Source: Vulcanimicrobiota bacterium
Lineage (GTDB): Bacteria > Vulcanimicrobiota > Vulcanimicrobiia > Vulcanimicrobiales > Vulcanimicrobiaceae
DNA length: 64,000 bases
Reading direction: 5' to 3'
Assembly: GCA_963790985.1 (NCBI GenBank)
Contig: CAWBQB010000003.1
Span: forward strand, 853,003-917,002
The notes under the pieces were generated by a model. That model ran no database searches, was not told the origin of the DNA, and saw nothing but the letters and a program-made list of their open reading frames with translations. The position numbers and the translations under genes were made by a program. Positions 5,411 to 49,543 of this stretch are shown piece by piece (position 1 is the first letter of the stretch; every line of letters starts with the position of its first letter).

Positions 5411-6184
5411 ATGATGACCGCCGACCTCGCCTTCGCGATCCTGATCAACCGCACGAGCGCCTTCTACGAGGCGAATCCCCCGGCGTACATGACCTACCTC
5501 GAGCACACCCACGTCAACGCTCCCACGCTCGGGCGCACGCAGGACATCGACCGCTCCATCGCCGTCCGGGTCGCCGACGACCTCGCCGTCATGCAGGACC
5601 TTCCCAACGGCGCCTCCCGCCTCGGCCAGGCCTTCCCGGTCGTCGCGTACTTCGATCCGCTTTCCAGCTTTCAGTTCAGCTACTTCGCCAACCTCAAGCG
5701 CGTCGACATCACGCTGCAGCGCGGCGCGCCGCTTCGGCTGGCGATTCCCGACGAGGATCCCAGCGTCAACGTCGTCGTGCCGTACAACAGCTACTGGGCG
5801 ACGCGCTACGCACCCGACTCGACCGATGCCGCGTTGCACCTGCTCGTCGACCCGACGCCGCGCGTCCGCAACGGCTTCTACCCGTCGGAGGTCGTCGAGG
5901 ATCCCGCAACGCACCTGCCCTCGCACATCGAGATGCGCGTCTCCGGCGGCGACGACGAGAGCATCGCCTTCGATTACAAAGTGATAGACGGCCACTGGGT
6001 GATCGTGCACGGCCGCTTCAGCGCGACCCAGCACGCGGCGTTTCTCACCTTCAAAGTCATCGCCGACGTAACGTTCGAGAACATCGCCTTTCCCTCGGAG
6101 CCGCCCGATCCTCGGCTCGCGGGCGCGGCGCCCGGCGCGACGGTTACGCCGTCGGCACCGCCTCGAGCGCGCCCCGCTCCGTAG
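5411..6184 (+). CDS. Hypothetical protein
   Basis: Good GC3 and non-shadow composition from MMTADLAFAIL onward. The first 200 aa of track ORF 4817..6184 are antisense to the amidohydrolase. An alternative in-frame ATG lies at 5351. No family is recognised. Confidence 0.55.
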   Translation: MMTADLAFAILINRTSAFYEANPPAYMTYLEHTHVNAPTLGRTQDIDRSIAVRVADDLAVMQDLPNGASRLGQAFPVVAYFDPLSSFQFSYFANLKRVDITLQRGAPLRLAIPDEDPSVNVVVPYNSYWATRYAPDSTDAALHLLVDPTPRVRNGFYPSEVVEDPATHLPSHIEMRVSGGDDESIAFDYKVIDGHWVIVHGRFSATQHAAFLTFKVIADVTFENIAFPSEPPDPRLAGAAPGATVTPSAPPRARPAP

Positions 6185-9100
6185 ACGGCGCGCCGCCGCG
6201 CACCGGGCGGTCCTTGGGCGCCAACCAGACGTACACGTTGGGGATGAGCAGCAGCGTGAGAACCAGCGAGCTCAACACCCCGCCGATCACCACGATGCCC
6301 AGGCTCGAGCGCGGCGCCGAACCGGGATCGAAGGCAAGCGCCAGCGGAACGTTTCCGGCAACCACCGAGAAGCTCGTCATGATGATCGGGCGGAACCGGG
6401 TGTAGGCGCTCTGGCGTATCGCCGAGAGTTTGTCGAAGCCGCGCGCGCGCAGCGTGTTTGCGTAGTCCACCAGCAGGATGCCGTTCTTGGCGGCTATCCC
6501 GATGAGCAATATCATCCCGATCAGCGAGAAGAGGTTGAGCGTGCGGTGCGTGAGGACCAACGCGCCGACCGCTCCGAAGGCGGCCACCGGCACCGACAAG
6601 ATGATGATGAACGGCGAGATATAGCTGTTGTAGAGCGCGACCATCAGCAGGTAGACCAAGACGATCGAAACGATCATCGCCAACCCCATGCCGACGAGCG
6701 TTTGGTGCATGAAGTCTTGCTGGCCGAGCGGCGCCGGGCGCACGACGATGTTCGGCGGCAGATGCAGCGACGGCAGGCGCTTGAGCAGCCCGCGCTCCAC
6801 CGCCGACAGCGAGGAGTTCGGCGCGTAGTTGGCCTCAACGTGGATGACGTTGTTGCGGTCGCTGCGGGTGATCAACGGCGCCGTCGGCGTGGAAACGAAC
6901 CGCGCGATGTCGCCCAGATAGACGATGCCGCCGCTCGAGGAGCGCACCGCGACGCTCTTGAGCACGTCGAGGTTCGTCTGGTACGACTGCGGATAGATGA
7001 CCTGCACCTGCTCCAGGCCCGACGTCGTCTCGAACTGCGTGGCGACGTTCCCGCCGAACGCCGCACCGGCCGCCTGCGCGGCCTGCCCCACGTCAACGCC
7101 CAGCGCTTGCGCTTTGTCCCGGTCGAACTCGATGGAGATTTCCGGCGCCAGCTGCGTGCCGGTGCTGTTGACGCTCGTCGCTCCGGGAACCGTCTGCAGC
7201 AAGCGGTAGACCTGCAGCGCGTACGGCGTGGGGTCCCCGCGCGTCACGTCGGTGACGAGGAAGTCAATGGGCTGCGAGTTGCCGCCGCCGCTTGCCGTCG
7301 CCGGCACCACGACCGCCTGCACGCCGCTGGGCAGGCTCTCCGCGACGATCTTTCGCAGCTGCGCGACCCAGTACGACGTCGGATGCTTGCGATCGTCCTT
7401 CAGCCACAAATGCACCTGGCCGACGTTGCTCTGGCTGACGAAGCCGCCGAACGGAGCGGCGTAGGCGCCCGCCACGGCGGTGTTGGCAAACGTGTCGGAC
7501 GTGCCGAGAATCCGCTGCTCGAGCGCGAACGTGCCCTTCTGCACCGTCGAGATCGGCGTGCCCAACGGGTAGACGAGCTGGATAAAGATCTCGCCGCGAT
7601 CCACGGGCGGGATGAACTCCTCGCCGACGACGCCGAAGCCGACCAGCGCGAGCGCGAAGACCAGCGTTGCGGCGCAAAACAGCGCTACCGCCTTGCCGCG
7701 CTGCAGGCTCCACGGCAGAACGCGCGAGGCGTACCATGTCCGCGCGTCGTCGAACACGCGCCCGAACCGCTCGACGAGCGGCCAGGGTTTCCAGTGCGAG
7801 CGCAGCGCCCAGAGCCCCGCCAAGGTGGGCGTCACCGTGAACGAGACGAAGAGCGAGGTCAGCGTCGAGATCACGACGACGATGGCAAACTCGGCGATCT
7901 GGCGGCCGACTTGCCCGCCGATGAAGGCGATCGGAAAGAAGACGACCACGTCCACGAGGGTGATCACGACCGCTGCGGCGCCGATCTCTTCCCGGCCGCG
8001 GACGGCCGCCTCTTTGGGCGGCTCGCGCAGCTCGGCGAAATGGCGCTCGATGTTTTCCAAGACGACGGTCGAGTCGTCCACGAGAATCCCGATCACCAGC
8101 GACATGCCGAGCAGCGAGATCGTGTCTACCGTGAGGTGCGTCAGCTTCATGACCGTCATCGCAATCGCAAGCGACGTCGGAATCGAGATGCAGACGACGA
8201 TCGCGCTGCGCCAGGAGCGCAGAAAGAAGATCATCGCGACGGCGGTAAGCAGGATCGCGGCCGCGAGCGTGCCGGTGACCGCCCGGATCTGCTGCTGCGT
8301 AAACTTCGACTGGACGTTGATGACGCGGAAGCTGATCTCGGGGAACTGGCGCTCGATGCCCGGCAACGCGCGCAGGACGTTGTTTGCGGCGTCCACCTCG
8401 CTGCCGTTCGAGGACTTCTGCACCTGCAGGAAGAGCCCGGGCCGGCCGCTGATGTGCGCGTACTGCAATCGCGGCTCGTAGCCTTCGGTCACCGTGGCGA
8501 CGTCGCCGACGCGCACGACGGCGTTGCTGGCGCTCCACGGATTGATCGCGCCTGCGAGCGACGCCATGCCGCCCTGATAGCTGCGCACCTGGCCGCCGGT
8601 CGAGTTGGCGAGTGCCGACGCCACGCTGCCGCCGGCCGGTATGATTGCAAGGTTGCGCACGGCATCGAGGCTCTGGATGTCCCCGCGCACGTCAATGGTC
8701 GTCTGGCGGTTGGGCTCGTAGGCGAAACCGCCGGGCACGCGTTGATTGTTTGCCTGCAGGGTCGCGATGACGTCGTCGAGCGTGAGGTTGGCTGCGGCAA
8801 GCCGCACCGGGTCCACGACGACCTCGTATGCGGGCGTCACCAGACCGCCGACGTTGGCAAACGATATCCCGGGGACTTGCTCGAGTTGGGGCGCGATGAC
8901 GTTGACGGCGTAGAGCGCAAGGCGCGAGAGCGAGAGCTTATCCGAATAAATCGCGAGCGTGACGACGACCGACTGCGCCGGGTCGTAGAGATTGACCGTC
9001 GGCGGCGTGAGGTTCGTCGGAAGGTAGCGTTCCGCGGCCTGGATGGCTTTATTCGTGAGCGCGAGATCGGTCGCGGAGTCGGAATTGATGTCGAAGATCC

Positions 9101-9383
9101 CGGTGATGGACGCCTGGCCCTGCTGCACGACCGAGTTGAACGTCTGCAGATCGGCGGTCCCCGCGAGGCTCTGCTCGATGGGCTGCACGATGTTGTCGCG
9201 CATCTCGGTCACCGAGGCGCCGTTGTACCCGACGGATATCGTGACGGTCGGCTGGCTCACGTCGGGGTAGAGCTGCTTAACGATCGTCGCCGTCGAGAGG
9301 ATGCCGGCAAACGTCATGAGCGCGATGATCACGAAGACGAGCGTCGGCCGCTCGATGAAGAGCCGGGTGAGGCTGAACTTCAC
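6144..9383 (-). CDS. RND efflux transporter, AcrB/HAE family inner-membrane permease
   Basis: 1079 aa starting MKFSLTRLFIERPTLVFVI. It shows the 12-TM/2-large-loop RND pattern, with typical motifs around ...ISLLGMSLVIGILVDDSTVVLENI... Confidence 0.92.
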   Translation of the reverse strand: MKFSLTRLFIERPTLVFVIIALMTFAGILSTATIVKQLYPDVSQPTVTISVGYNGASVTEMRDNIVQPIEQSLAGTADLQTFNSVVQQGQASITGIFDINSDSATDLALTNKAIQAAERYLPTNLTPPTVNLYDPAQSVVVTLAIYSDKLSLSRLALYAVNVIAPQLEQVPGISFANVGGLVTPAYEVVVDPVRLAAANLTLDDVIATLQANNQRVPGGFAYEPNRQTTIDVRGDIQSLDAVRNLAIIPAGGSVASALANSTGGQVRSYQGGMASLAGAINPWSASNAVVRVGDVATVTEGYEPRLQYAHISGRPGLFLQVQKSSNGSEVDAANNVLRALPGIERQFPEISFRVINVQSKFTQQQIRAVTGTLAAAILLTAVAMIFFLRSWRSAIVVCISIPTSLAIAMTVMKLTHLTVDTISLLGMSLVIGILVDDSTVVLENIERHFAELREPPKEAAVRGREEIGAAAVVITLVDVVVFFPIAFIGGQVGRQIAEFAIVVVISTLTSLFVSFTVTPTLAGLWALRSHWKPWPLVERFGRVFDDARTWYASRVLPWSLQRGKAVALFCAATLVFALALVGFGVVGEEFIPPVDRGEIFIQLVYPLGTPISTVQKGTFALEQRILGTSDTFANTAVAGAYAAPFGGFVSQSNVGQVHLWLKDDRKHPTSYWVAQLRKIVAESLPSGVQAVVVPATASGGGNSQPIDFLVTDVTRGDPTPYALQVYRLLQTVPGATSVNSTGTQLAPEISIEFDRDKAQALGVDVGQAAQAAGAAFGGNVATQFETTSGLEQVQVIYPQSYQTNLDVLKSVAVRSSSGGIVYLGDIARFVSTPTAPLITRSDRNNVIHVEANYAPNSSLSAVERGLLKRLPSLHLPPNIVVRPAPLGQQDFMHQTLVGMGLAMIVSIVLVYLLMVALYNSYISPFIIILSVPVAAFGAVGALVLTHRTLNLFSLIGMILLIGIAAKNGILLVDYANTLRARGFDKLSAIRQSAYTRFRPIIMTSFSVVAGNVPLALAFDPGSAPRSSLGIVVIGGVLSSLVLTLLLIPNVYVWLAPKDRPVRGGAPSTERGALEAVPTA

Positions 9384-10654
9384 GGCTGAAACGAGACCTT
9401 TTCGCCGTCGCCGACGCTGGCCTGACCGTTGGCGACGACGCGGGTGCCCGGCGCGATGCCGGTGACGACCGACGTCGTTCCGTCTCCGCCGGTCTCGGCG
9501 ACCTTGACCGTCTTCACGGTGTCGTCGGCAAGCACCGTCACGACCGCATCGTGGTTGTCGTCGGTAAACGCCGTCTCGGGGATACGAACGCCGCGCAAGG
9601 GACTCACGGCGATCGTCCCCTGGACCGCCATGCCGGGTCGCAGGCGCTGCTGCGGATTTGCCAGCACGACCTTCACTTGAAAGTCCGTCGAACCAGGGTT
9701 GATCTCGTTGAGCACGCCCGCTACGCGCCCGCTCACGCGCGCCGCGATGCCCGCGTCGGCCGTCGCGATCGTGGCCGGCGCACCCGTTTGGATCCGCGCG
9801 ATCTGTTCGCCCGACGCGTGGAGCACTGCGTAAATCGGATTGACCTGCTGAAGCGTGAAGAGCTCGCGGTTGCCGGGATATTCGCCGGGGTTGAGGTTGC
9901 GATTGACGACCACGCCGTCAATGGGCGAGAGGATCGTCGCTTTGCCGATCTGCACGCGCACTTGCTGGGCTTGAGCGAGCGCGACTTTCTCCTGCGCCGC
10001 CGACTGCGCCACCGCGGCCGATTGCAGGCCGCCTCCCGACAGACTGCCGTTCGCCTGCACGTTCGACGCCGCAGCGGAGAGGGCGGCGCTTGCGGAGTCG
10101 AGCGTCTGCTGGTCGTTTCGCGCGAGGGTCGCTTGCGCGTCGACCGACTGCTGCGAGATGTACCCTTGCGCGAGAAGGTTCTGGTCGCGGCTGAGATTTC
10201 GGCGGTCGTTTTCGAGGGTTTGCTGCGCCTGCGCGACCGCGGCGCGGTCCGCCCGCACGGTGTCTACGCCCTGGGCGATGGAGAGTGAGCCCTGGTACAC
10301 GGCGTGCTGGGTGTTGGCCTGATTGCTGTTCGCCGTCGCAAGATCGGCGTCCATCTGCGCCTCGAGGTCGGCGGTATCGAGCCTCGCCAGCACCTGCCCG
10401 GCTCGCACCTCGTCGCCCTCTTGGACGTAGACGGCATCGGCGGGCTCGCTGAGCGAACTTTGGATCGCGACGTTCTCGTAGGGCGCGATGATGCCGGCCA
10501 GGTGCTCCGATGGATTCACCGCGCCGTAGGTCGCCACGGCTGTCTGGACGTAGGGAGGCGGTGGCCCGGGCTTTTCCGGGCGCGCGCAGGCGGCCGTGGA
10601 GAGGAGCGCGAGGAGCCCGCAGAGCAGCGGCGATGGGTGCTGGCGGCGTTTCAT
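9380..10654 (-). CDS. RND periplasmic adaptor (membrane fusion protein, HlyD-like), probable lipoprotein
   Basis: The signal peptide ends ...LLSTAAC. It has a long coiled-coil Ala/Gln-rich hairpin, a barrel-sandwich region and a beta-barrel C-terminus. It overlaps the RND permease start by 4 nt. Confidence 0.85.
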   Translation of the reverse strand: MKRRQHPSPLLCGLLALLSTAACARPEKPGPPPPYVQTAVATYGAVNPSEHLAGIIAPYENVAIQSSLSEPADAVYVQEGDEVRAGQVLARLDTADLEAQMDADLATANSNQANTQHAVYQGSLSIAQGVDTVRADRAAVAQAQQTLENDRRNLSRDQNLLAQGYISQQSVDAQATLARNDQQTLDSASAALSAAASNVQANGSLSGGGLQSAAVAQSAAQEKVALAQAQQVRVQIGKATILSPIDGVVVNRNLNPGEYPGNRELFTLQQVNPIYAVLHASGEQIARIQTGAPATIATADAGIAARVSGRVAGVLNEINPGSTDFQVKVVLANPQQRLRPGMAVQGTIAVSPLRGVRIPETAFTDDNHDAVVTVLADDTVKTVKVAETGGDGTTSVVTGIAPGTRVVANGQASVGDGEKVSFQP

Positions 10655-10710: not shown

Positions 10711-11406
10711 ATGGGTCAAGACGCGGAACGACCGCGGGTGCTCGTGGTTGACGACGAGCGAGGGCTGCGCGAGTTGCTGGAGTACGGCCTCGCTCAGGCC
10801 GGCTTTACCGTCCGCAGCGTCACCGACGGCTCGGCAGCTCTGCCGGTGCTCGATTCCTGGGACCCCGACGTCATCGTCCTCGACGTCATGCTGCCCGGCG
10901 GCGACGGTTTCACCGTCCTGCCCGAAATCCGGCGGCGCACGACCGCGCCGGTCGTCATGCTCACGGCGCGCACCGAGGTGGCCGAAAGGGTCGCGGGGCT
11001 GACCGCCGGGGCCGACGACTACGTCGGCAAGCCGTTCGATCTCGAAGAGCTCGTCGCGCGCCTGCGGACGCTCCTGCGTCGGCCCGCGATCGAAGAGCGT
11101 GAAACGCTAACGTACGCCGACCTCAGCGTGGACGCGCGCAGCCGCAGCGTCTGGCGCGGAAACCGCCGCATCGAGCTGTCTCCCCGCGAGTTCGACCTGC
11201 TCGTTACGTTCGCGCAGCGCGCCGAGGAAGTGCTCACGCGCTCGCAGCTCCTCGATCTCGTCTGGGGCATAGATCGCGACGTCGTCCCAAACACCGTGGA
11301 AACGTACGTCTCGTTCCTGCGCGCGAAGATCGACAGCGGCGAGGCCGTCAAACTGATCCAGACCCTGCATGGCGTCGGCTACGCGCTGAGAGCGAGCAGC
11401 TCGTGA
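10711..11406 (+). CDS. OmpR/PhoB-family response regulator
   Basis: Receiver domain RVLVVDDERGLRELL...DVIVLDVMLPGGDG...K, followed by the winged-helix region LTYADLSVDARSRSVWRGNRRIELSPREFDLL...VETYVSFLRAKID. It is divergent from the RND operon. Confidence 0.9.
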   Translation: MGQDAERPRVLVVDDERGLRELLEYGLAQAGFTVRSVTDGSAALPVLDSWDPDVIVLDVMLPGGDGFTVLPEIRRRTTAPVVMLTARTEVAERVAGLTAGADDYVGKPFDLEELVARLRTLLRRPAIEERETLTYADLSVDARSRSVWRGNRRIELSPREFDLLVTFAQRAEEVLTRSQLLDLVWGIDRDVVPNTVETYVSFLRAKIDSGEAVKLIQTLHGVGYALRASSS

Positions 11407-12797
11407 CCAACCGGCTGGCACGGCGCATTGCCGTGTCCACCGCGACCGAGATCGCCCTCGTCGTGGTCGCGATCGTGCTTGCCGGCGCGCTCCTGGCCTT
11501 CGGCCTCTACGTTCGCGCGCTCTCGAACGAGCTGGCCGGAACGCTCGGGCAGCTGCGCAGCGCGCTGGCCGAAACGTCGCTGCCCGACGCGCGCGCCGGC
11601 GGGAATTTCGCGGCGTCGCTGCTCTTGGGGACGGGCACCGAGCTGGTCTTCCTCGACGCGAACACGCGCGTAACCGTCTACCGGCTGCGCCGTTCCGACG
11701 CTCGGCCGACCGTGACGGTGCGAAACCGCGTCGATCTCTCCGGCGATCCGCCGGCCGGCGGCGCTCTCGCTCCCGCCGTCGTCGGGCTTGCGACCGCGTT
11801 TGGACTGCAGCCGCTGCGCGCCCAAGCCGGCAGCATCTACGTCGTCGTGAAGGCCAACGAGGCGACGCTCGTGGCGACGGTGCGCGCGTTCCTCCTGCCG
11901 CTGCTCGCCGCGCTCGCCCTCGCCGTAGCCTTCGCCGTCCTCGTCGCGCGAACGCTCGCACGGCGCGCCGTTGCGCCGTTGGAGGACGTCACGGGTGCGC
12001 TCGGGCGCTTCGCATCGGGCGATCTGACGCCGCAGCCGATTGCCGCCGACGAGCATCACGATCTCGCCGCGCTCGCGGCCGCTTATAACGGCGCCGTCGA
12101 GCAGATGGCCCGCGCGTTCGGCGAGCGCGACCGCGCGAACGCAGCGATGCACCAGTTCATCGCCGACGCCGGCCACCAGCTGCGCACACCTTTGACGGTG
12201 CTTCAAGGCTTCATCGCGATTCTGCGCCGCGGCGGATTCGACAACCCCGCCGATCGGGAGCGGATACTCGACACGATGTACGACCAGAGCCGCATCATGG
12301 GCGCGCTCATAGACAAGCTGCTGCTGCTCGAGCGATGGGAGAGTCCGGACGAGCCCGGCGCCGCGCGACCGATCGACGTCGGCAGGCTGGTGGGCGATCT
12401 CGTCGCCCCGATTGCCGACGCGAATCCCGATCGGCGGTTCTCCATCGCGACGCAAGGCGGCATCCTCGCCTCGATAGACCCAACCGAGCTCGGCTACGTC
12501 GTAACGAACCTCACCGACAACGCGCTCAAGTACGCCCTCGGAGAGATCGCCGTGCGCGTGCGGACGGAGAACGGAGCCGCCGTCATCGAGATCGCCGACC
12601 AAGGCCCGGGCATTTCACAATCCGACGCCGCGCGCGTATTCGACCGGTTCTACCGCGGCGCGCAGCGCGACGTGCCGGGATCGGGGCTCGGCTTGGCAAT
12701 CGTCAAACGCGCCGTCGAGCGCGCCCAGGGGAGCGTCACGCTCGACTCGTCGTCGGGCGGCTCGCGCTTCACCGTGCACCTGCCGCGCGTTGTGTAG
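11403..12797 (+). CDS. Sensor histidine kinase (TM-HAMP-HisKA-HATPase_c)
   Basis: H-box FIADAGHQLRTPLT, N-box NLTDNALKYA, G1 ADQGPGI and G2 GSGLGLAIV are present. The GTG start overlaps the regulator stop (GTGA). Confidence 0.9.
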   Translation: MTNRLARRIAVSTATEIALVVVAIVLAGALLAFGLYVRALSNELAGTLGQLRSALAETSLPDARAGGNFAASLLLGTGTELVFLDANTRVTVYRLRRSDARPTVTVRNRVDLSGDPPAGGALAPAVVGLATAFGLQPLRAQAGSIYVVVKANEATLVATVRAFLLPLLAALALAVAFAVLVARTLARRAVAPLEDVTGALGRFASGDLTPQPIAADEHHDLAALAAAYNGAVEQMARAFGERDRANAAMHQFIADAGHQLRTPLTVLQGFIAILRRGGFDNPADRERILDTMYDQSRIMGALIDKLLLLERWESPDEPGAARPIDVGRLVGDLVAPIADANPDRRFSIATQGGILASIDPTELGYVVTNLTDNALKYALGEIAVRVRTENGAAVIEIADQGPGISQSDAARVFDRFYRGAQRDVPGSGLGLAIVKRAVERAQGSVTLDSSSGGSRFTVHLPRVV

Positions 12798-28163: not shown

Positions 28164-28502
28164 CTAGCCGGGAGGCCAGTGCAGCCGCCGGCCTGCGAGG
28201 ACGTGGAGGTGGACGTGGGCGACCGTCTGCCCCCCGTCGGGCCCGGTATTGACGACCAGACGAAAGCCGTTGCCGCCCCGTTCGCCCCCCAGGCGCGCCG
28301 CAACCGCCACCGCTCGAGCGCACAGAGACGGGTCGGCTTCCGCAAGTTCGCCGATCGTTGCGTAGTGGCGCAGGGGCAGCACGAGCAGATGCGCGGGTGC
28401 CTGCGGATCGAGGTCCTCGATGGCGACGATGCCGTCGTCGCGGTAGGCGACTGCGGCAGGGATCTCGCCGCGGCCGATCCGGCAGAAAACGCAGTCGTCC
28501 AT
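28164..28502 (-). CDS. HIT-family (histidine triad) nucleotide hydrolase
   Basis: CVFCRI..., the HVHLHVL triad motif and a length of 112 aa. Confidence 0.9.
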   Translation of the reverse strand: MDDCVFCRIGRGEIPAAVAYRDDGIVAIEDLDPQAPAHLLVLPLRHYATIGELAEADPSLCARAVAVAARLGGERGGNGFRLVVNTGPDGGQTVAHVHLHVLAGRRLHWPPG

Positions 28503-30019
28503 CAGTGCGTCCTAATCGTGAAGGTCCACGACTTCGTCGTCGTGTTGCCGGCTTGATCGCTCACGCGAACCGTGACGCGGATCAGCCCCTCGGGATAGCT
28601 GAAGCTCGGCATGTATTGGATGAACTGCGCGGTGCGCACGCACTCGGACGTGACGTCGCGCCCGTCGATCGACATGAACGCGCTCGACGGATTGACCGGC
28701 ACGGCGTCGGCGACGAAGCTTGCGTACACGGCGGGCTGGGTCGTGTTCACCGTCGCGCCCGCATCCGGCGCAAAGTCGGCGATGCCCGGCGGAACGCTCG
28801 AGGCGGAGATGGTTTGCGGCGCCTGGCCTTGCGCGCGCGCCTGACCGGCCGCGAGACGCCCGATGAGCGGAACCTCGTCGAAATTTGCGCCGCGCGGGAT
28901 CGTGTAGCTTCCGGCGTACGTCCCGGGGGAGACCTCGCGCATCGCCTGATTTGCCACGTCCGAACCGATGTCGAACGTTGCCGCCGCGGCCGGCGTTCCG
29001 TGCATCGTCACGTGGATCGTCTCGCCCTGGCGCAACGGCCGGTTCGCGTCGGTGCCGACCGACGAAACCGCGAGCGCTCCGGGCGCTGTCGCCGCCGTTC
29101 CGGCAATGCTGCGGCTCGCCAGCACCTCGCGAACTTCGTTGGTCTCGACGTTGTACCGCACGGTTACGACGTCGCTGGGGCGCAGGTCGGTGAAGGCCGC
29201 AGCCTTTCCGTTAAGCGCTACCTCCGTCGTGCGTCCGTCGTAGATGACTTGGCCGTCGTCGAGCACGAATTGGCTGCCCGCAATGGCGACGATGCGCCCG
29301 TTGCGCGACCCGTACTCGTCCACGACGCGCTCCACGCGGCCGTCCTTGCGCATCTGCACGCGCGCGAAATCGCCGGGGCGCACGTCGCCCAGCTCGCCCG
29401 GCGACGTCACGTTGACGTTGACGTTCTCGACGTCGATCACCGCGTTGGGAGCGACGGGGATGGTCTTGACGCCGCCGTTATACCCAAGCGTGATCGTCGG
29501 CGGATCGGAGAGCACGTCTACGGCCGCCACGGTGCCGAAGCGTTCGAAGCCGCCGCCGACCTTCACGAGACCGTCGGCCGAACGGCCGACGAGTTGAGCC
29601 ACGATCGTTACCGTATTGGTGCGGCGGTCGAAATGTGCCTGAGCGCCCAGGACGTCGGTAAAGAAGCGCAGGGAGACGTAGAGGACGTTGTTGATCTCGA
29701 CGGGCGGCGCTTCGAGCGCGAGCGTGGCGCCGTCGATTTGCGCCTGGCGGCTACCGACGGTCAGCGTAACGTTCTTCGAGCCGACCTGCGTCGTGATACG
29801 GTTGCCGCTGCGGTCGAACGCGAGTCCGAGCGCCTCGATCGTGCGCCGCACCGGCACGAGCAGCAGGCTTCCCTCGAAACGCGGCGGCGGCTGCAGGGCG
29901 AGAACGTTGCCGTTGATGACGACCACGATCGGGCGCGCCTGCGCCGCAGGAGCAGCGGCGCCCGCGCGCGCCGCTGCGGCGCAGGCCAAAAGCACCAGTA
30001 CGGTCAGGCTCCGTTTCAC
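28502..30019 (-). CDS. Secreted multidomain protein with N-terminal copper-amine-oxidase-N (stalk) domain and Ig-like/beta-rich repeats
   Basis: GTG 30019 has GGAG 6 nt upstream. The signal peptide is VKRSLTVLVLLACAAAARAGA. This is followed by VVINGNVLALQPPPRFEGSLLLVPVRRTIEALGLAF...QIDGATLALEAPPVEINNVLYVSLRFFTDVLGAQ, which matches the Cu_amine_oxidN1 pattern. Confidence 0.75.
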   Translation of the reverse strand: MKRSLTVLVLLACAAAARAGAAAPAAQARPIVVVINGNVLALQPPPRFEGSLLLVPVRRTIEALGLAFDRSGNRITTQVGSKNVTLTVGSRQAQIDGATLALEAPPVEINNVLYVSLRFFTDVLGAQAHFDRRTNTVTIVAQLVGRSADGLVKVGGGFERFGTVAAVDVLSDPPTITLGYNGGVKTIPVAPNAVIDVENVNVNVTSPGELGDVRPGDFARVQMRKDGRVERVVDEYGSRNGRIVAIAGSQFVLDDGQVIYDGRTTEVALNGKAAAFTDLRPSDVVTVRYNVETNEVREVLASRSIAGTAATAPGALAVSSVGTDANRPLRQGETIHVTMHGTPAAAATFDIGSDVANQAMREVSPGTYAGSYTIPRGANFDEVPLIGRLAAGQARAQGQAPQTISASSVPPGIADFAPDAGATVNTTQPAVYASFVADAVPVNPSSAFMSIDGRDVTSECVRTAQFIQYMPSFSYPEGLIRVTVRVSDQAGNTTTKSWTFTIRTH

Positions 30020-43662: not shown

Positions 43663-44058
43663 CTAAACCCGGCGCCGCTTCGGCGGGCGGCAGCCGTTGT
43701 GCGGGATGGGCGTCACGTCCTTGATCATGGTGATCTCGAGGCCCGCCGCCTGCAGCGAGCGGATCGCAGCTTCGCGTCCGGCTCCCGGCCCCTTCACCAT
43801 GACTTCGGTTGACTTCATGCCGTGTTCCATCGCCTTGCGGGCGGCCGCCTCGGCGGCCATTTGGGCGGCAAACGGGGTCGACTTCTTCGACCCCTTAAAT
43901 CCGAGATTGCCGGCCGACGCCCAGGAGATGACTCCACCGTGCGGGTCGCTGATCGTGACGATCGTATTGTTGAACGACGCGTGCACGTGCGCAACGCCGG
44001 AGAGGACGTTCTTTACCTCTCGCTTGCGTCGCGTCTTCGTTTGCTTCTTGGCAGCCAA
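43663..44058 (-). CDS. rpsK: 30S ribosomal protein S11
   Basis: [30 protein letters not shown]. The start is TTG, with GGAG 7 nt upstream. Confidence 0.95.
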
Positions 44059-44120
44059 AAATATCTCCGAATGAAGTGAGGGCGTGGTGAGCCGGGGGCG
44101 CCTTGCGGCACCAAGTGAGT

Positions 44121-44150
44121 ATCTTACCTTAGGACCCGAATCCCGGTCAA
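44121..44150 (-). promoter_or_regulatory. Sigma70-like promoter upstream of rpsK
   Basis: The minus strand reads TTGACC-N18-TAAGAT, about 60 nt upstream of the rpsK start and directly after the terminator hairpin of the inserted genes. Confidence 0.5.
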
Positions 44151-44155
44151 ATACT

Positions 44156-44184
44156 AGGGGCCCTGCCTGATAGGCCGGGCCCCT
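44156..44184 (-). terminator. Terminator hairpin after the downstream OMP paralog
   Basis: The minus strand reads AGGGGCCC-(13 nt)-GGGCCCCT followed by AGTATTT, about 25 nt after the stop at 44209. Confidence 0.5.
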
Positions 44185-44208
44185 TCCGACGACCGGGTGC
44201 CCGGCCGC

Positions 44209-45537
44209 CTACGGGTAAAGGAAGCGGAATCCGATCCCGGCAAACGGCCCGTTGTAGGACCGGTTCACCGGGGCGTTCTGCTTGTTCGTCCAGCTGTCGC
44301 CCATCCAGCCGGCTTCGATGAAGAGCGGGCTGCGGCCGAAAGCGTAGTCGATCCCGCCCTGGTATTTCAGGATATTGTACGCCAGGCCGTAGGACGAGGG
44401 GCTCCCGGGAGCCACGGCCGTGGCCGGGACGGAGTACGTCCCCTTGACGTTCGGGTAGTACCAGACGTTGCCGAAGAACGAGAACGCGTGGTTGAGGTCG
44501 GGCAGCTTCTCGATGCCGTACCCCACGGCGTTCATGTTCGGGTAGCCGTAGTTGTTCGATACCCAGAGGTAGCCGACGCCGATGTAGACGCGCGGGTCGA
44601 GCACGCGAACGCCCAGCCGCAGGTCCACGTTCTGGTCCCAGAGCGGCGAGGTCGTGGTTACCGCGGTGCTGCCCTGGCCTCCGATGGTCGTGACGTAGCA
44701 CGACGGTGCGAACGACCCGTTGACCGAGACGCTGCAGTTGTGCGGGTACTGCCAGTGCTCGAAAGCCCCCTCGATCATGAAGGGGATGCGGCCGAGATTG
44801 AACTCGCCGCCGCCTCGAATCGCATACGAGTTGCTGCCGCTGTTCCCAGGGCTGAACTCGTTGTAGACCTTAGGTGAGAAGACGTAGTCGCCCGCAACGA
44901 ACGCTTCGGATGCCGGCGGTGGCATCGGAGTAGGCGTCGGCGGGGGCGGGGGCGGAGCCGTCGGCGGCGGCGGAGCCGGGCTGGGCGGCGGCGTCGGCGG
45001 AATGTACCGCACGACGACCAGACGCTTGTCCGGAACCCACTGCACGTACGCGCCCATTCCCTCGGAGATGACGCGAATCGGCACGAGCACCGTACCCTGG
45101 TAGATGATCGGCGGCACGTCCAGCGGACGAGCTTCGCCGTTGATGACGACTTCCGGTTTGCCGACGGTCACTTTGACCTCGGCGCCGGGCTTGGTCACCG
45201 TCGCCGTCTGGCTGCCCGCGTCGTACGACACCGTCGCGCCCATCTGCTCGAACATCGAGCGAAGCGGGATCAGGATCGTGCCGCCCTTCACCAGCGCCGC
45301 GAGAACGCGGCCCTGCTTGAGAACGTCGGGCTTGGAATAGACGTGGTGATCGTTATAAAGGATGGGGATCTGGCCGGAGGGCGGACTTCCAAAGTCCGCC
45401 GGCGGGGGCCCGCCGGATTGCGCGACGCCGTTTCCAGTGTTTCCTTGCGTCGACGCGAGCGACGGAGCCGCGACCGCGCCAAATCCGCAGAACGCAGCGA
45501 ACAGCGCTGCGAGTACCCCGGTGCGAGTTCGTTTCAC
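44209..45537 (-). CDS. Outer-membrane-type protein, paralog A: signal peptide + Cu-amine-oxidase-N domain + poly-Pro linker + C-terminal beta-barrel-like domain
   Basis: GTG 45537 has AAGGAGG 5 nt upstream, the same context as paralog B. Features include VKRTRTGVLAALFAAFCGFGAVAAPSLAS, GTILIPLRSMFEQMGATVSYD...VINGEARPLDVPPIIYQGTVLVPIRVISEGMGAYVQW, PPTPPPSPAPPPPTAPPPPPPTP, and an aromatic/Gly/Asn-rich C-terminal half ending GIGFRFLYP. Confidence 0.8.
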   Translation of the reverse strand: MKRTRTGVLAALFAAFCGFGAVAAPSLASTQGNTGNGVAQSGGPPPADFGSPPSGQIPILYNDHHVYSKPDVLKQGRVLAALVKGGTILIPLRSMFEQMGATVSYDAGSQTATVTKPGAEVKVTVGKPEVVINGEARPLDVPPIIYQGTVLVPIRVISEGMGAYVQWVPDKRLVVVRYIPPTPPPSPAPPPPTAPPPPPPTPTPMPPPASEAFVAGDYVFSPKVYNEFSPGNSGSNSYAIRGGGEFNLGRIPFMIEGAFEHWQYPHNCSVSVNGSFAPSCYVTTIGGQGSTAVTTTSPLWDQNVDLRLGVRVLDPRVYIGVGYLWVSNNYGYPNMNAVGYGIEKLPDLNHAFSFFGNVWYYPNVKGTYSVPATAVAPGSPSSYGLAYNILKYQGGIDYAFGRSPLFIEAGWMGDSWTNKQNAPVNRSYNGPFAGIGFRFLYP

Positions 45538-45548
45538 GAGTGCCTCCT
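44936..45548. repeat. Near-identical direct repeat, copy A (5' half of OMP paralog A plus its RBS)
   Basis: It aligns without gaps to 46390-47002 at a constant offset of 1454 nt. I count about 17 mismatches in about 610 nt by eye. Confidence 0.85.
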
Positions 45549-45668
45549 TATCGTACATGCCTCCCGGCATACTTGCCCCACGGCGAGCGGCGGTAAACCG
45601 CGGAGGTTTGAAAAGCGCAAGGCGCCCCCTCAACCGAGGAAGCGCCCTGCAGATTAGCCGCTGGGTTG

Positions 45669-46991
45669 CTAGAAGGGCAGGAAGATGAGCAGACCCCCGT
45701 ACGCACCGTTAACGGTGTACGAAATCGGGTAGTTGTTCTTGTTCGCGCCATTCTCGCCGGCCCACCCGAGGTCGAGTGCGACGGACGGGATGAACGCCCA
45801 GTCCACGCCCACCTTGTACTTCAGCAGGTTGTACCCTACGCCGAACGTCTGGCCCGGCGGGATCGCGTTGGAACCGGTCGTGTACGATCCCTTGAAGTTC
45901 GGGTAGTAGTAGACGGAGCCGTAGTACGAGAACGCGTGGTTGTAGTCGGGGAGCTTTTCGAGCCCGCCGCCCACCGCGTTCAAGTTCGGATAGCCGTAGT
46001 TGTTCGAGCCCCAGATGTAGCCCACCGCAACGTACACGTGCGGGTTGAAAATCTTGAACCCGAGACGCGCGTCGAAATCACGATTGACCGCGGTGAAGCC
46101 CGGTACGTAGGTGGAGCCTCTGCTGCCGATCGTGGTCACGTAGCATTGCGGAGAGCTTTGCGCCGATGCGCTCGATTGCGGCACGCCGCAGTTGTGCGGG
46201 TACTGCCAGTTGTTGTAGTCCACTTCAACCATGAGCGGCAGGGCAAAGGCGTCGAACGCCATCCCGCCGCGAACGCTGAACGAGCCTGCCCCGCCGTTGC
46301 CCGGCGAGAACTCGTTGTACATTTTCGGGTTGAACAGGTAATCGCCGGCGACGAACGCGACGTTCGGCGGCGGCTTAGGCGGTGCCGGAGTCGGCGGGGG
46401 CGGGGGCGGAGCCGTCGGCGGCGGCGGAGCCGGGCTGGGCGGCGGCGTCGGCGGGATGTACCGCACGACGACCAAACGCTTGTCCGGAACCCACTGCACG
46501 TACGCGCCCATTCCCTCGGAGATGACGCGAATCGGCACGAGCACCGTACCCTGGTAGATGATCGGCGGCACGTCCAGCGGACGAGCTTCGCCGTTGATGA
46601 CGACTTCCGGTTTGCCGACGGTCACTTTGACCTCGGCGCCGGGCTTGGTCACCGTCGCCGTCTGGCTGCCCGCATCGTACGACACCGTCGCGCCCATTTG
46701 CTCGAACATCGAGCGAAGCGGGATCAGAATCGTGCCGCCCTTGACCAGCGCCGCGAGAACGCGGCCCTGCTTGAGAACGTCGGGCTTGGAATAGACGTGG
46801 TGATCGTTGTAAAGGATGGGGATCTGGCCGGAGGGCGGACTTCCAAAGTCCGCCGGCGGGGGCCCGCCGGTTTGCGCGACGCCGTTTCCAATGTTTCCTT
46901 GCGTCGACGCGAGCGACGGAGCCGCGACCGCGCTAAACGCGCAGCATGCTGCGAACAGCGCTGCGAGTACCCCGGTGCGAGTTCGTTTCAC
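45669..46991 (-). CDS. Outer-membrane-type protein, paralog B (same architecture as paralog A)
   Basis: GTG 46991 has GGAGG 5 nt upstream. The N-terminal roughly 200 aa are nearly identical to paralog A. The C-terminal half has diverged but keeps NWQYPHNC, CYVTTIG, GYPNLNAVG and EKLPDYNHAFS, and ends LLIFLPF. Confidence 0.8.
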   Translation of the reverse strand: MKRTRTGVLAALFAACCAFSAVAAPSLASTQGNIGNGVAQTGGPPPADFGSPPSGQIPILYNDHHVYSKPDVLKQGRVLAALVKGGTILIPLRSMFEQMGATVSYDAGSQTATVTKPGAEVKVTVGKPEVVINGEARPLDVPPIIYQGTVLVPIRVISEGMGAYVQWVPDKRLVVVRYIPPTPPPSPAPPPPTAPPPPPPTPAPPKPPPNVAFVAGDYLFNPKMYNEFSPGNGGAGSFSVRGGMAFDAFALPLMVEVDYNNWQYPHNCGVPQSSASAQSSPQCYVTTIGSRGSTYVPGFTAVNRDFDARLGFKIFNPHVYVAVGYIWGSNNYGYPNLNAVGGGLEKLPDYNHAFSYYGSVYYYPNFKGSYTTGSNAIPPGQTFGVGYNLLKYKVGVDWAFIPSVALDLGWAGENGANKNNYPISYTVNGAYGGLLIFLPF

Positions 46992-47002
46992 GAATGCCTC
47001 CT
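46390..47002. repeat. Near-identical direct repeat, copy B
   Basis: See copy A (44936-45548). Confidence 0.85.
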
Positions 47003-47099
47003 TGAGTTAACTTGGCTCTTTTGGGACGGGCCGTGCCCGGCCCAAGTTAAGGAGCGAGCAGCGCCGTCGGCGCTTGCCCGTCCTTTAAAAAGATAGCCG

Positions 47100-48299
47100 T
47101 TATTGCCCCACAGCGCAACGTGATAAGCGCCAGAGCCACGCAATTCCTACCAAAGTCTCACACAATGCCAATGTAAATGCGACGCGCGGACCTTGCGACG
47201 AATTCGTCAGCGCCAACCGCTGCAAGAGAGCGGTCGTCAGCGCGGGCGCGGCAATTTGCGGAAGCACGACGGCCAGATTCCAAACGCCCATCGCCGCTGC
47301 CATCGAACCCGTCGGCAGCACGCGGCATGCAATCGCCCAGTCGGCTACGAGAAAAACTCCCCATCCCGCGCCCGCAAGCAGCGTCGCTGCCACGACGCCG
47401 GCCAGCGCGTGCGACGCGATGAACAGCGCGAGCGCGCCGATGAACGCCGCTGCGCCGATCGTCGCAACGAGCCTGCGGTCGAGCCGATCGCTCGGCCGCG
47501 CGGCGAGCGCCGCGCCGCCCGCGCTCACGATCGTGAACGTCACGATGAGGATGCCCGTCTCGCGCCGCGCGCCGGCCAGCGACGTCGCGCCCAGTACCGC
47601 GGTGACGTAAAAAAGCAAATAGCCCAAGAGCGTGTAGAAGCCGACGTAGACGAGCGCGCGCGAAATGAAGAGATCCACGAACGCGCGCGTCACGCGCGCG
47701 CGCGGCTGCGTTTCGTCGCCGGTCGAGAGCGCGAGACGGCGCGCGTGATCCGCAGTAACCGCCCAGCACGCGACCAGCAGCCCCGCGAGAGCGCCGCTCA
47801 ATACGCGTGCGTTCGCAATGAAGCTCGCCGCCAGGGCCCCGACGGCGTTGCCTGCCCCTTGAAGCGCGGCCATCCACGACGACGCCGCCCCGATGCGCGA
47901 CCGATCCACGAAATCCGGGATGATCGCCTGATAGGGACCGATCGCAACGTTGAGCGAGGCCTGCAGCGCGACGAACGCAACCGTCAGCGCGGCCAGCGTC
48001 GGGGCGTCGTAAAAGAACACGAGCGCGACCGCGCCTCCGAACGCGCCCACGGCGTAGAACTCGATGCGCCGGCTGCCGCGCCGCCGCCGCGCGTCCGACC
48101 AGACGCCCACGACGACCTGCGCGACCGCCGCTACGATCGCGCCGATCGTCGCGAGACGACCGTACGCGAGCAGCGCGTCTGCGGGAGCGAGCTCGATCGT
48201 TCGCGACTGCAGCGAGATTCCGAGCAGGGCTCCCCAGACGGCTTGAATGCCTAGCCAGAAGAGCGCGAGGCGGAATGGATTAGCCGTGCGCGCAGGCAT
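47100..48299 (-). CDS. MFS-type transporter (12 TM)
   Basis: 399 aa and hydrophobic throughout. An Arg-rich loop (DARRRRGSRR) follows TM2, as in the MFS motif A position. Confidence 0.75.
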   Translation of the reverse strand: MPARTANPFRLALFWLGIQAVWGALLGISLQSRTIELAPADALLAYGRLATIGAIVAAVAQVVVGVWSDARRRRGSRRIEFYAVGAFGGAVALVFFYDAPTLAALTVAFVALQASLNVAIGPYQAIIPDFVDRSRIGAASSWMAALQGAGNAVGALAASFIANARVLSGALAGLLVACWAVTADHARRLALSTGDETQPRARVTRAFVDLFISRALVYVGFYTLLGYLLFYVTAVLGATSLAGARRETGILIVTFTIVSAGGAALAARPSDRLDRRLVATIGAAAFIGALALFIASHALAGVVAATLLAGAGWGVFLVADWAIACRVLPTGSMAAAMGVWNLAVVLPQIAAPALTTALLQRLALTNSSQGPRVAFTLALCETLVGIAWLWRLSRCAVGQ

Positions 48300-49014
48300 A
48301 GCGATACTCGGCTAACGTGTCGACGTCGAAGGCGAGCTCGGGCGAGCAGCCGCGGACGGCCAATGCGGGCAGCGCCAACACCCGCGCGGCGAGGAGCTCC
48401 AAGTCGCCGACGCCCAGGCGACCCGTCGCGAAACGAAGCAGGCCGAGGGGACCGACGATCCCCGCCATCCGCCACGGCTGCTTACGCGCTTCGAAAAAAC
48501 GCGCGGCGACCTCGGCAAGTTTGACCGCTCCGCCGCTCGGAATCGAAAAGAGCCCGCCGTTAACGACGCGCTCGCCCGCAAGCGTGATGCCGAAAGGCGG
48601 CGCCTGCGGAAAGCGCGCCGCGAAATCCGCGAACTCGCTGAGCGCGATACCGAGCGTGCCGGCAGGCAGGCGCGCCACGAAGTCCGCGATCGCGGCGCCG
48701 GTAACGTAGGGGAGGTCGCTGGTGGCGTAGAGGAGCGCCTCGCCGTCGTCCGGCCAAGCGGAAAGCGCGCGCTGCAGATTCTCGCTCCCGGACGGGCTTT
48801 CCGCGATGCATCGCTCGACGCTGCCCTTGCAGGCAGCCCGAACCTCGTCGCCGCCGACGACGGCGATGCGCGTCACGCCGGCCGCGCGCAGCGCGGCGAG
48901 CACGCGCGCGAGCATCGTCTCTCCCCGAATCTGAGCGAGCGCCTTTACGCGGACGCCCGCAGCCTGCGCGAACGCATCCTCGATGCGCCCGCCGGCGGTG
49001 ACGACCGCTTTCAC
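48280..49014 (-). CDS. MobA-like NTP-transferase (GT-A fold nucleotidyltransferase) family protein
   Basis: MKAVVTAGGRIEDAF...K is a G-x-G-R nucleotide-binding loop. ...LYATSDLPYV supplies an acidic motif. It starts 10 nt after the rpsM stop. Confidence 0.6.
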   Translation of the reverse strand: MKAVVTAGGRIEDAFAQAAGVRVKALAQIRGETMLARVLAALRAAGVTRIAVVGGDEVRAACKGSVERCIAESPSGSENLQRALSAWPDDGEALLYATSDLPYVTGAAIADFVARLPAGTLGIALSEFADFAARFPQAPPFGITLAGERVVNGGLFSIPSGGAVKLAEVAARFFEARKQPWRMAGIVGPLGLLRFATGRLGVGDLELLAARVLALPALAVRGCSPELAFDVDTLAEYRYACAHG

Positions 49015-49024
49015 GAAAACGCGC

Positions 49025-49411
49025 CTACTTCTTGGCTATGGTCTTTTTCTTGCCGGCGACGGTGCGTTTGGGACCCTTGCGCGTGCGGGCGTTCGTCTTC
49101 GTGCGCTGCCCGCGAACCGGCAAGCCCCGGCGATGGCGCATGCCGCGGTAACACCCGATGTCCATCAGGCGCTTGATGTTCCCCTGCACCTCGCGGCGCA
49201 GGTCTCCCTCGACCCGGAGCTGCAGTGCGTCGATCGCATCGCGCAGCTTCTTCTCGTCTTCCTCGCTCATCGCTTTGACGCGGAGGTTCGGATCGATGTG
49301 CGCGTAGGCGAGCAGCTTGCGCGCCGTCGTCACGCCGATTCCGTAGATGTACGTGAGCGCGATTTCTACGCGCTTCTCGCGAGGCAGATCGATGCCGGCG
49401 ATACGGGCCAT
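49025..49411 (-). CDS. rpsM: 30S ribosomal protein S13
   Basis: [26 protein letters not shown]. Confidence 0.95.
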
Positions 49412-49426
49412 GAAAAACCGTTCCTT

Positions 49427-49543
49427 CTATCCCTGCACTTGTTTGTGCTTGGGATTGACTTCGCAGATCACGCGCACTTTGCCGTGACGGCGAATGATTT
49501 TGCACTTCTCGCAGATTTGCTTGACCGAGGGTCTAACTTTCAT
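49427..49543 (-). CDS. rpmJ: 50S ribosomal protein L36
   Basis: Below the track cutoff. My translation is [38 protein letters not shown]. Confidence 0.92.

Follow-up and report, generated by a model that had tools for sequence, protein, structure and literature searches.

Paired predicted outer-membrane barrel proteins with a Cu_amine_oxidN1 domain as candidate outer-membrane-to-wall tethers of Eremiobacterota

A stretch of 64,000 nucleotides from a Vulcanimicrobiota bacterium (GenBank assembly GCA_963790985.1, contig CAWBQB010000003.1, positions 853,003 to 917,002 of the forward strand; referred to in full as "the window") carries two neighbouring paralogous genes, here named A and B. Their products are very probably outer-membrane barrel proteins, and there is an even chance at best that their function is wall tethering or anchoring. 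Both precursors comprise a signal peptide, a Cu_amine_oxidN1 domain (PF07833), a proline-rich linker and a C-terminal beta-barrel, which is the arrangement proposed for these tandem genes in an earlier inspection of the letters alone (the sequence-only reading) and is borne out by the open reading frames (ORFs), by Pfam matches at E about 2e-27, and by AlphaFold2 and Foldseek. A barrel joined to a periplasmic wall module is a known kind of protein; among the searches made, the barrel sequence family and its combination with PF07833 are new. The sequence-only reading had known of no described family with this combination, and searches of Pfam, NCBIfam, the PDB and the literature likewise returned no family and no paper in which PF07833 is fused to an outer-membrane barrel.

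How the outer membrane is held to the wall in non-proteobacterial diderms is relevant to models of the transition from diderm to monoderm cells (10.1101/2021.05.31.446380; PMC10628300). A conserved, phylum-restricted barrel whose wall-type module sits on a spacer of constant length is a concrete, testable candidate tether, and the family would provide a first functional lead for the Cu_amine_oxidN1 domain, which is widespread. This stalk domain has been without an assigned function, even in TynA of Escherichia coli, since the structure of the amine oxidase, and the Eremiobacterota are abundant in soils with one cultured member only.

Domain architecture of the two proteins

Gene A (45669-46991) encodes a 440-aa precursor and gene B (44209-45537) a 442-aa paralogue of A-like architecture, both on the minus strand, as are all features of the locus given below, and both with a GTG start; A is delimited by its ORF, Pfam, AlphaFold2 and Foldseek, B by its ORF, the alignment with A, Pfam, AlphaFold2 and Foldseek. 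The TTG at 45633, which a mechanical ORF list gives as the start of B, was rejected and the GTG at 45537 taken instead, because the two genes have a common start context and the alignment of the two proteins begins at that codon. Read directly from the sequence, this context is identical in A and B (AAGGAGG-N5-GTG-AAA-CGA-ACT-CGC), with the Shine-Dalgarno motif AAGGAGG at 46997-47003, 5 nt ahead of the GTG, for A, and at 45543-45549 for B, in agreement with the strong GGAGG-type ribosome-binding sites described in the sequence-only reading.

The C-terminal domain is predicted to be a ten-stranded outer-membrane beta-barrel, comprising residues 209-440 of A (45672-46367, ending ...FLPF; assigned from AlphaFold2, Foldseek, dyad hydrophobicity and invariant columns) and the matching part of B (44212-44913, ending ...GFRFLYP; AlphaFold2 and Foldseek). 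AlphaFold2, run with family alignments (models m2b558e49c7f8 for A and m0bc58828f8de for B), gives residues ~210-440 of A a predicted local distance difference test score (pLDDT) above 90; the barrel of B exceeds 95, the mean over the whole of that protein being 80. Ten long antiparallel strands connected by hairpins are modelled there, alike in both proteins; in A, they span residues 211-225, 230-248, 251-266, 299-315, 319-330, 337-346, 354-371, 382-401, 404-419 and 425-439. The barrel assignment derives from this strand list together with Foldseek. The prediction for the C-terminal half is hence an outer-membrane-type barrel, as the sequence-only reading had expected, and not a non-barrel fold.

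Foldseek comparison with the PDB gave 25 matches for A and 23 for B at E <=1e-3; those of them that were listed are, without exception, outer-membrane barrels. The ten-stranded OpcA is the best of them (template-modelling (TM) score 0.55-0.57 on the target; top match of B 2vdf, TM 0.57), followed by pOmpT, OmpT and Pla, which also have ten strands, by the Legionella Dot/Icm porin I, and then by FadL, OmpG, FapF, NspA, OmpX and Ail. Across the family alignment, hydrophobic residues take turns with polar or charged ones along the strands (dyad hydrophobicity), and the motifs YPH, NNYGYP and EKLPD are conserved in the barrel. The family consensus ends in ...NGPYVGLGIKF, which is similar to the beta-signal of the beta-barrel assembly machinery (BAM). 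The aromatic C-terminus, another element of the sequence-only reading, is present in A (...IFLPF, aromatic residue last) and in the consensus (...GLGIKF), while B is atypical, its ...FRFLYP having the aromatic residue in the penultimate position. Together with the even strand number, the amphipathic strands, the likeness to solved outer-membrane proteins and the signal peptide, these termini would place A and B in the general class of BAM-dependent outer-membrane proteins.

At the level of sequence, the C-terminal ~230 aa have no match in Pfam, NCBIfam or the PDB, the family profile included, and a Pfam/NCBIfam scan of the barrel with 28 family members yielded sub-threshold hints only, namely of YfaZ (E 0.026), PagL and MOSP_C. 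Judged by these profile comparisons, the barrel is a new sequence family for which there is no Pfam model; beside the significant match to PF07833, the proteins gave no full-length match to a characterised outer-membrane protein family.

In all known outer-membrane proteins, the C-terminus is periplasmic. With this and an even number of strands, ten, the N-terminus of the barrel would also be periplasmic, and loop L2 with its pair of cysteines would be extracellular. The predicted periplasmic turns are short (2, 3, 7 and 2 residues), whereas L2, at residues 267-298 (32 residues), is the longest loop and the most variable part of the protein; it is in this loop that the Cys pair noticed in the sequence-only reading was located. 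The linker and the PF07833 domain, in turn, probably lie in the periplasm.

In A, the first ~28 residues (46908-46991) make up the signal peptide, which reads MKRTRTGVLAALFAACCAFSAVAAPSLA and is followed by STQ; it was called on the translation by eye (KRTR, hydrophobic core, SLA/STQ), and AlphaFold2 models its residues 8-17 as a helix at low pLDDT. Reading it as a lipoprotein signal with a lipobox was rejected, as the Cys residues of the h-region are not retained in homologues, for example in P0112. The Cu_amine_oxidN1 domain follows directly after the signal peptide, as it does in many proteins secreted by Firmicutes, and lies at residues about 58-178 of A (46458-46820; Pfam E 1.8e-27 over residues 80-175) and at 45004-45366 in B (E 2.3e-27). 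Compared with the stalk proteins of Firmicutes and with E. coli TynA, the domain is a bona fide member of PF07833, scoring 95.8 and 95.5 bits against a gathering cut-off of 24.2 at model positions 12-107/108 (A and B). Searches of NCBIfam and of PDB sequences with A and B gave as their sole match the N-domain of the E. coli amine oxidase (E 2e-4 for the N-domain of A), and the domain of B is modelled at a pLDDT of about 90 with a beta-alpha-beta repeat pattern. It is the best-conserved part of the protein, with a mean majority fraction over the columns of the family alignment of 0.86, where the barrel reaches 0.64 and loop L2 0.54, and with a cross-species identity of 57-93% versus 47-83% for the barrel.

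Between the two domains lies the proline-rich linker, assigned in A from alignment and composition (46368-46457; about 30-34 residues, 65% Pro, at low pLDDT and with no secondary structure) and in B from composition (44914-45003), where it also marks the drop in DNA identity between the two genes. The linker reads IPPTPPPSPAPPPPTAPPPPPPTP... and measures 34 aa, with 62-65% Pro, in the two proteins. Family-wide, the median length is 36 (interquartile range 34-38, n=48), while the sequence itself drifts. Such a segment would act as a stiff polyproline-type spacer of about 10-11 nm when fully extended, at 3.1 Å per residue for polyproline II.

A second PF07833 protein is encoded in the window at about 28502-30016 (minus strand; likely start GTG, VKRSLTVLVLL...). 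It comprises a signal peptide, PF07833 (E 1e-19) and ~350 beta-rich aa with a weak match to the Ig-like Big_13, and has no barrel; its gene adjoins that of a GT4 glycosyltransferase. Since the domain directly follows the signal peptide in this barrel-less protein as well, the module is used in exported, presumably periplasmic, proteins of the organism.

Variation within the pair and across the family

A and B are 72% identical overall, which combines 97% identity over the N-terminal 204 aa with about 50% over the last ~235 aa, the barrel. The same holds for the DNA, where an identity of ~97% covers the first ~660 nt, from the start codon to where the poly-Pro linker ends (44926-45537 versus 46380-46991), and falls sharply to 55-70% beyond it. 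A-type and B-type barrels each have separate orthologues in other genomes (P0043, for instance, ends in ...GFRFLYP, as B does), and most Cybelea-like loci contain an A-type copy followed by a B-type copy. An origin of the pair by recent tandem duplication was rejected in view of barrels that are only ~50% identical and have separate orthologues elsewhere, and of a 97% identity that is limited to the first ~660 nt. At locus L002, the two N-modules are 93% and 79% identical to that of A and thus form a more divergent pair than the one described here. Because the near-identity of the DNA is confined to the N-module in the present genome, while N-modules differ more in others, the pattern indicates that the N-terminal module of A and B was homogenised by recent gene conversion, with the breakpoint in the poly-Pro (proline-codon) repeat. 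As the two proteins differ mainly in the barrel and their N-modules are kept near-identical in this way, they may be two barrel variants presenting one shared, putatively wall-binding module.

Homologues were collected by a word-indexed search with the barrel (184 proteins), an exhaustive hidden Markov model search of 1.84 billion cluster representatives from 50% identity clusters (329 at E <=1e-3) and a scan in which each GTDB species was represented by one genome (342 loci). Taxonomy was examined for the 80 best of these loci. Those 80 come from metagenome-assembled genomes (MAGs) of Eremiobacterota/Vulcanimicrobiota (Cybelea, Tumulicola, Tyrphobacter, Baltobacteraceae), save two Acidiferrales-labelled bins and a few entries named "uncultured bacterium" or "bacterium". 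The two bins (L026 and L034) are labelled "Candidatus Acidiferrales bacterium" yet show the full Eremiobacterota-type synteny; they and two further oddly labelled entries, P0268 (Verrucomicrobiae) and P0375 (Mycobacterium), are probably mis-binned contigs. Apart from these, all named members of the family are from Eremiobacterota, to which it appears to be restricted.

The barrel is always C-terminal, and most full-length members have the PF07833 N-domain. In some members (P0131, P0146, P0148, P0164), only a signal peptide and a short lead rich in Pro and Ala stand before the barrel. P0243 (501 aa) is a single polypeptide with two tandem barrels, P0186 (688 aa) has pentapeptide repeats ahead of PF07833 and the barrel, and in P0122 (1378 aa) ~1100 aa of DUF11/DUF5979 adhesin-type repeats and a short Pro-rich segment precede the barrel. 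Searching for homologues with the N-domain alone returned only short Eremiobacterota fragments of these same genes and no new architectures.

In many MAGs, the gene ends at a contig end or is split into an N-domain ORF (~200 aa) and a barrel ORF (~230 aa), as is the case for P0010 and P0349 on one 914,798-bp contig and for P0273 on the contig of L007. These splits fall in the poly-Pro linker, which is a C-rich homopolymer in the DNA; they probably reflect frameshifts or assembly errors and not real stand-alone proteins, and under-annotation of the family would follow.

Wall tethering and competing explanations

In the reading that we favour, the precursor would be exported by the Sec pathway and freed of its signal peptide, and BAM would then insert the C-terminal ~230 residues as a small ten-stranded barrel, both ends of which would face the periplasm, with the long, variable, disulfide-containing loop L2 facing outwards. 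The ~34-residue Pro-rich segment would hang into the periplasm as a stiff spacer carrying the highly conserved Cu_amine_oxidN1 domain, which would bind peptidoglycan or a wall-linked polymer non-covalently, possibly as a dimer. The protein would thus be an outer-membrane-to-wall tether or anchor and a functional analogue of OmpA and OmpM built from different modules.

We infer the periplasmic location of the N-domain, its wall binding and the tethering role from several lines of evidence. Because the N-domain is conserved far above the barrel, an internal ligand is favoured over exposure at the surface, and a linker whose length is tightly held though its sequence varies is what a spacer bridging a fixed distance would show. 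PF07833 recurs together with cell-wall (peptidoglycan) hydrolase domains and in surface proteins of monoderm bacteria (PMC4137172), and figures in a list of modules predicted to bind the cell wall (bioRxiv 10.64898/2026.09.23.753664). A wall-directed function fits with the conservation of the N-domain, the constraint on linker length, the published hydrolase associations and the topology taken together.

Support for the envelope that such a tether requires comes from the literature, according to which the host phylum is diderm. In transmission electron micrographs of thin sections, Vulcanimicrobium alpinus, a fellow member of the family Baltobacteraceae, has an inner and an outer membrane and thin peptidoglycan (PMC9758169), and WPS-2 genomes encode BamA and lipopolysaccharide synthesis (PMC6664022). 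A survey of tethers sampled two Eremiobacterota genomes, neither of which has OmpA, Pal, Lpp or LolA, and one of them, Ca. Eremiobacter sp. bin22, has no OmpM either, nor any other known tether (10.1101/2021.05.31.446380 supplement). The 64-kb window itself contains no gene for BamA, Lpt, OmpM, Pal or OmpA; its envelope-related genes are those of a resistance-nodulation-division (RND) pump with its membrane-fusion protein and of a YceG homologue.

Several observations weigh against a tethering role. The N-domain of A, in contrast to that of B, is modelled at low confidence. In our literature search, homodimerisation of PaSOD, mediated by PF07833 (PMC10432803), was the only biochemistry of the domain found, with no peptidoglycan-binding experiment; dimerisation is compatible with tethering and does not demonstrate it. 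The alternative N-terminal parts of the family, i.e., those of P0122, of the barrel-only members and of the double barrel, suggest that the barrel may be a general anchor, perhaps displaying passengers. Finally, the other surveyed genome, the WPS-2 MAG PKUW01, encodes one OmpM-like protein with SLH together with CsaB (10.1101/2021.05.31.446380 supplement), and the family of A and B is therefore probably not the sole tether in the phylum. The literature search gave no paper that connects Eremiobacterota with the copper amine oxidase domain or discusses OmpM there.

Of the known tethers, OmpM/SlpA is the closest in layout. The wall module SLH occurs on surface proteins of monoderms and, in diderm Terrabacteria, precedes a barrel in the form of OmpM (PMC10628300), a case to which that of PF07833 is closely parallel. 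Like A and B, OmpM1 of Veillonella parvula (PMC10628300) combines a signal peptide, an N-terminal periplasmic wall-associated module (putative in A and B), an extended spacer and a C-terminal barrel, in a diderm host outside the Gracilicutes and with a module that monoderms also use on wall-associated proteins. However, the module of OmpM is SLH (PF00395), while Pfam at E up to 1 returns PF07833 only for A and B; the spacer of OmpM is a trimeric coiled coil, while the linker of A and B is 62-65% Pro with no helix predicted at 179-209; the strands number 16 in OmpM (VpOmpM1, PMC10628300) and 30 in SlpA against the ten predicted here; and there is no sequence similarity. Membership of A and B in the OmpM family was rejected on these grounds (no SLH, no coiled coil, ten strands and not 16), so that of the label "OmpM-like" used in the sequence-only reading, the domain order stands and the components do not.

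OmpA of E. coli has in common with A and B a small barrel as its anchor, a hinge rich in Pro and a globular domain in the periplasm (predicted in A and B). The order of the domains is reversed, the barrel of A and B being C-terminal, the strands number eight in OmpA and ten here, the hinge of A and B is about twice as long, and Pfam and NCBIfam find no OmpA_C (PF00691) in them; membership in the OmpA family was rejected because of the missing PF00691, the reversed order and the ten strands. In the intimin/invasin type, an N-terminal periplasmic LysM domain, which binds peptidoglycan and dimerises, precedes an outer-membrane barrel. The barrel of intimin has 12 strands and is followed by a large passenger outside the cell; A and B, in contrast, end with the barrel. 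The best structural neighbours, OpcA of Neisseria and OmpT/Pla, are only modestly similar (E 5e-6 to 1e-4, TM up to 0.57 on the target) and share with A and B the ten strands and long extracellular loops, but a linker and a periplasmic domain at the N-terminus are absent from both. Sequence membership in the omptin or OpcA families does not apply, the likeness being at the level of the fold at 8-14% identity with no Pfam or PDB sequence match, and neither does membership in the type V autotransporters, given ten predicted strands and no Pfam match.

Among the competing explanations, a structural outer-membrane protein that does not bind the wall is an unlikely one. The Cu_amine_oxidN1 domain would then dimerise or dock a partner and organise the barrels in pairs or in a lattice, in keeping with homodimerisation in PaSOD as the only biochemical role of PF07833 that we found (PMC10432803). 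The N-modules of A and B, 97% identical through gene conversion, would allow homo- and heterodimers through one interface, and EKLPD, an invariant motif in a periplasmic turn, could be a docking site. The recurrence of PF07833 alongside peptidoglycan-hydrolase domains (PMC4137172) speaks for the wall instead. So does the constrained spacer of ~36 residues, which is easier to explain by the reach to a layer at a fixed distance; moreover, dimerisation does not rule out wall binding. The LysM domain of intimin both dimerises and binds peptidoglycan. Quite improbable is an autotransporter-like surface display, in which the barrel would serve as anchor or translocator and the N-domain with the Pro-rich linker would stand outside as an adhesin or surface module. 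It takes up the order of passenger, linker and C-terminal barrel, which is that of type Va autotransporters, the surface exposure of PF07833 proteins in monoderms (PMC4137172), the ~1100 aa of DUF11/DUF5979 repeats, typical of surface adhesins, that P0122 puts before this barrel, and the presence of the autotransporter EstA among the weaker Foldseek matches (rank 18, TM 0.19-0.25). Known autotransporter barrels, however, have 12 or 16 strands and not ten; the linker is poly-Pro, with no helical pore-plug segment predicted by AlphaFold2; Pfam gives no match to an autotransporter family (PF03797 and relatives); the nearest structures are the closed ten-stranded OpcA and OmpT; and an N-domain far better conserved than the extracellular loops would be unusual for a surface module.

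Least probable of all, in our estimate, is a substrate-specific outer-membrane channel, where the barrel would admit a solute, the transporter of the major facilitator superfamily (MFS) encoded next to it would import and a MobA-like nucleotidyltransferase (NTP_transf_3) would activate it, the N-domain being an accessory. The attraction of this explanation lies in the gene order, since NTP_transf_3, MFS and outer-membrane protein genes keep their succession between rpsM and rpsK in the loci with enough flank, and the first two overlap by 20 nt directly after rpsM. Known diffusion channels, however, are wider than a ten-stranded barrel allows, and its neighbours OpcA and OmpT/Pla do not act as channels; a structured 108-nt spacer separates the outer-membrane protein genes, which have predicted terminators of their own, from the MFS gene; the searches made assign no substrate to the transporter or the nucleotidyltransferase; and barrel paralogues also occur away from the block, as does an extra copy in L072. 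A general-porin role, the other possibility raised in the sequence-only reading, is unlikely as well, because there are ten strands and not 16 and the best structural neighbours are not diffusion pores.

Wall tethering is weighed against three alternatives, and a broader claim may be attached to it. It is conceivable, if somewhat doubtful, that the family constitutes a further, unrecognised tether type specific to Eremiobacterota beside Lpp, Pal, OmpA and OmpM, in which Cu_amine_oxidN1 binds peptidoglycan or a wall polymer and a polyproline rod of fixed length sets the distance between outer membrane and wall. If this were true, Terrabacteria would have exchanged the modules by which barrel tethers bind the wall on at least one occasion, and the numerous Firmicute proteins with PF07833 would be anchored to the wall via this domain.

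Genomic setting and transcription

On the minus strand of the window, the genes follow each other in the order rpsM (49025-49411), NTP_transf_3, MFS, A, B, rpsK (43663-44058), rpsD and rpoA, which confirms the location among ribosomal protein genes given in the sequence-only reading and places the pair between rpsM and rpsK. The MobA-like nucleotidyltransferase gene (48280-49014; Pfam and synteny) starts 10 nt past the stop of rpsM and overlaps the start of the MFS gene (47100-48299; Pfam MFS_1 E 1.4e-24 and synteny), which lies directly upstream of the outer-membrane protein genes. The nearest solved structure to the nucleotidyltransferase is the hypothetical protein TTHA0179 of Thermus, with KdsB as a weak further relative; the MFS protein found no relative in the PDB.

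Synteny was assessed by tblastn of the neighbourhood proteins against 81 loci (L001-L081) and judged only where the flank was sufficient. In such loci, the order of rpsM, NTP_transf_3, MFS, outer-membrane protein (one or two copies) and rpsK is kept with occasional extra genes, for example a DUF72 gene in L001 and up to several kb between the outer-membrane protein gene and rpsK in L039, L040 and L050. The junction of rpsM and rpsK is otherwise near-universal; the block of NTP_transf_3, MFS and outer-membrane protein genes is a conserved interruption of it in Eremiobacterota.

The sequence-only reading had taken this location within a ribosomal protein (r-protein) operon, together with the ribosome-binding sites, to suggest very high expression of the two genes, an argument from location which we do not uphold. 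A spacer of 108 nt with two GC-rich hairpins (46992-47099) precedes A. After A, a terminator-like element consisting of a perfect 16-bp G+C-rich hairpin followed by CUUUUC is found at 45610-45651, in both the minimum-free-energy and the centroid fold of 45538-45668, and RNA folding places a terminator-like hairpin with a U-rich tail after B at 44148-44184. Compared with shuffled controls, the spacers 45538-45668, 44059-44208 and 46992-47099 (minus strand) are more stable, with z-scores of -2.2, -2.7 and -3.1, respectively. A motif scan found a sigma-70-like promoter match upstream of rpsK (44121-44150; TTGACC, 18-nt spacer, TAAGAT), which is the only such match in 43900-49500, where 0.4 would be expected by chance. 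Because of the spacer ahead of A, the hairpins after A and B and the promoter-like site before rpsK, the outer-membrane protein genes appear to be separate transcription units and not part of the r-protein transcript.

Codon adaptation is uninformative in this respect, as the r-protein genes do not stand out in an index built on those of the window, in which A ranks 29th and B 50th of 67. The consensus ribosome-binding site is, on present reading of the DNA, the only feature that suggests strong expression of A and B.

Elsewhere in the window, the genes at 6144-10654 on the minus strand encode the RND efflux transporter, a protein of 1079 aa in the AcrB family, with its membrane-fusion protein. 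They have no adjacent outer-membrane factor, and the gene of a two-component histidine kinase (11403-12797) adjoins them.

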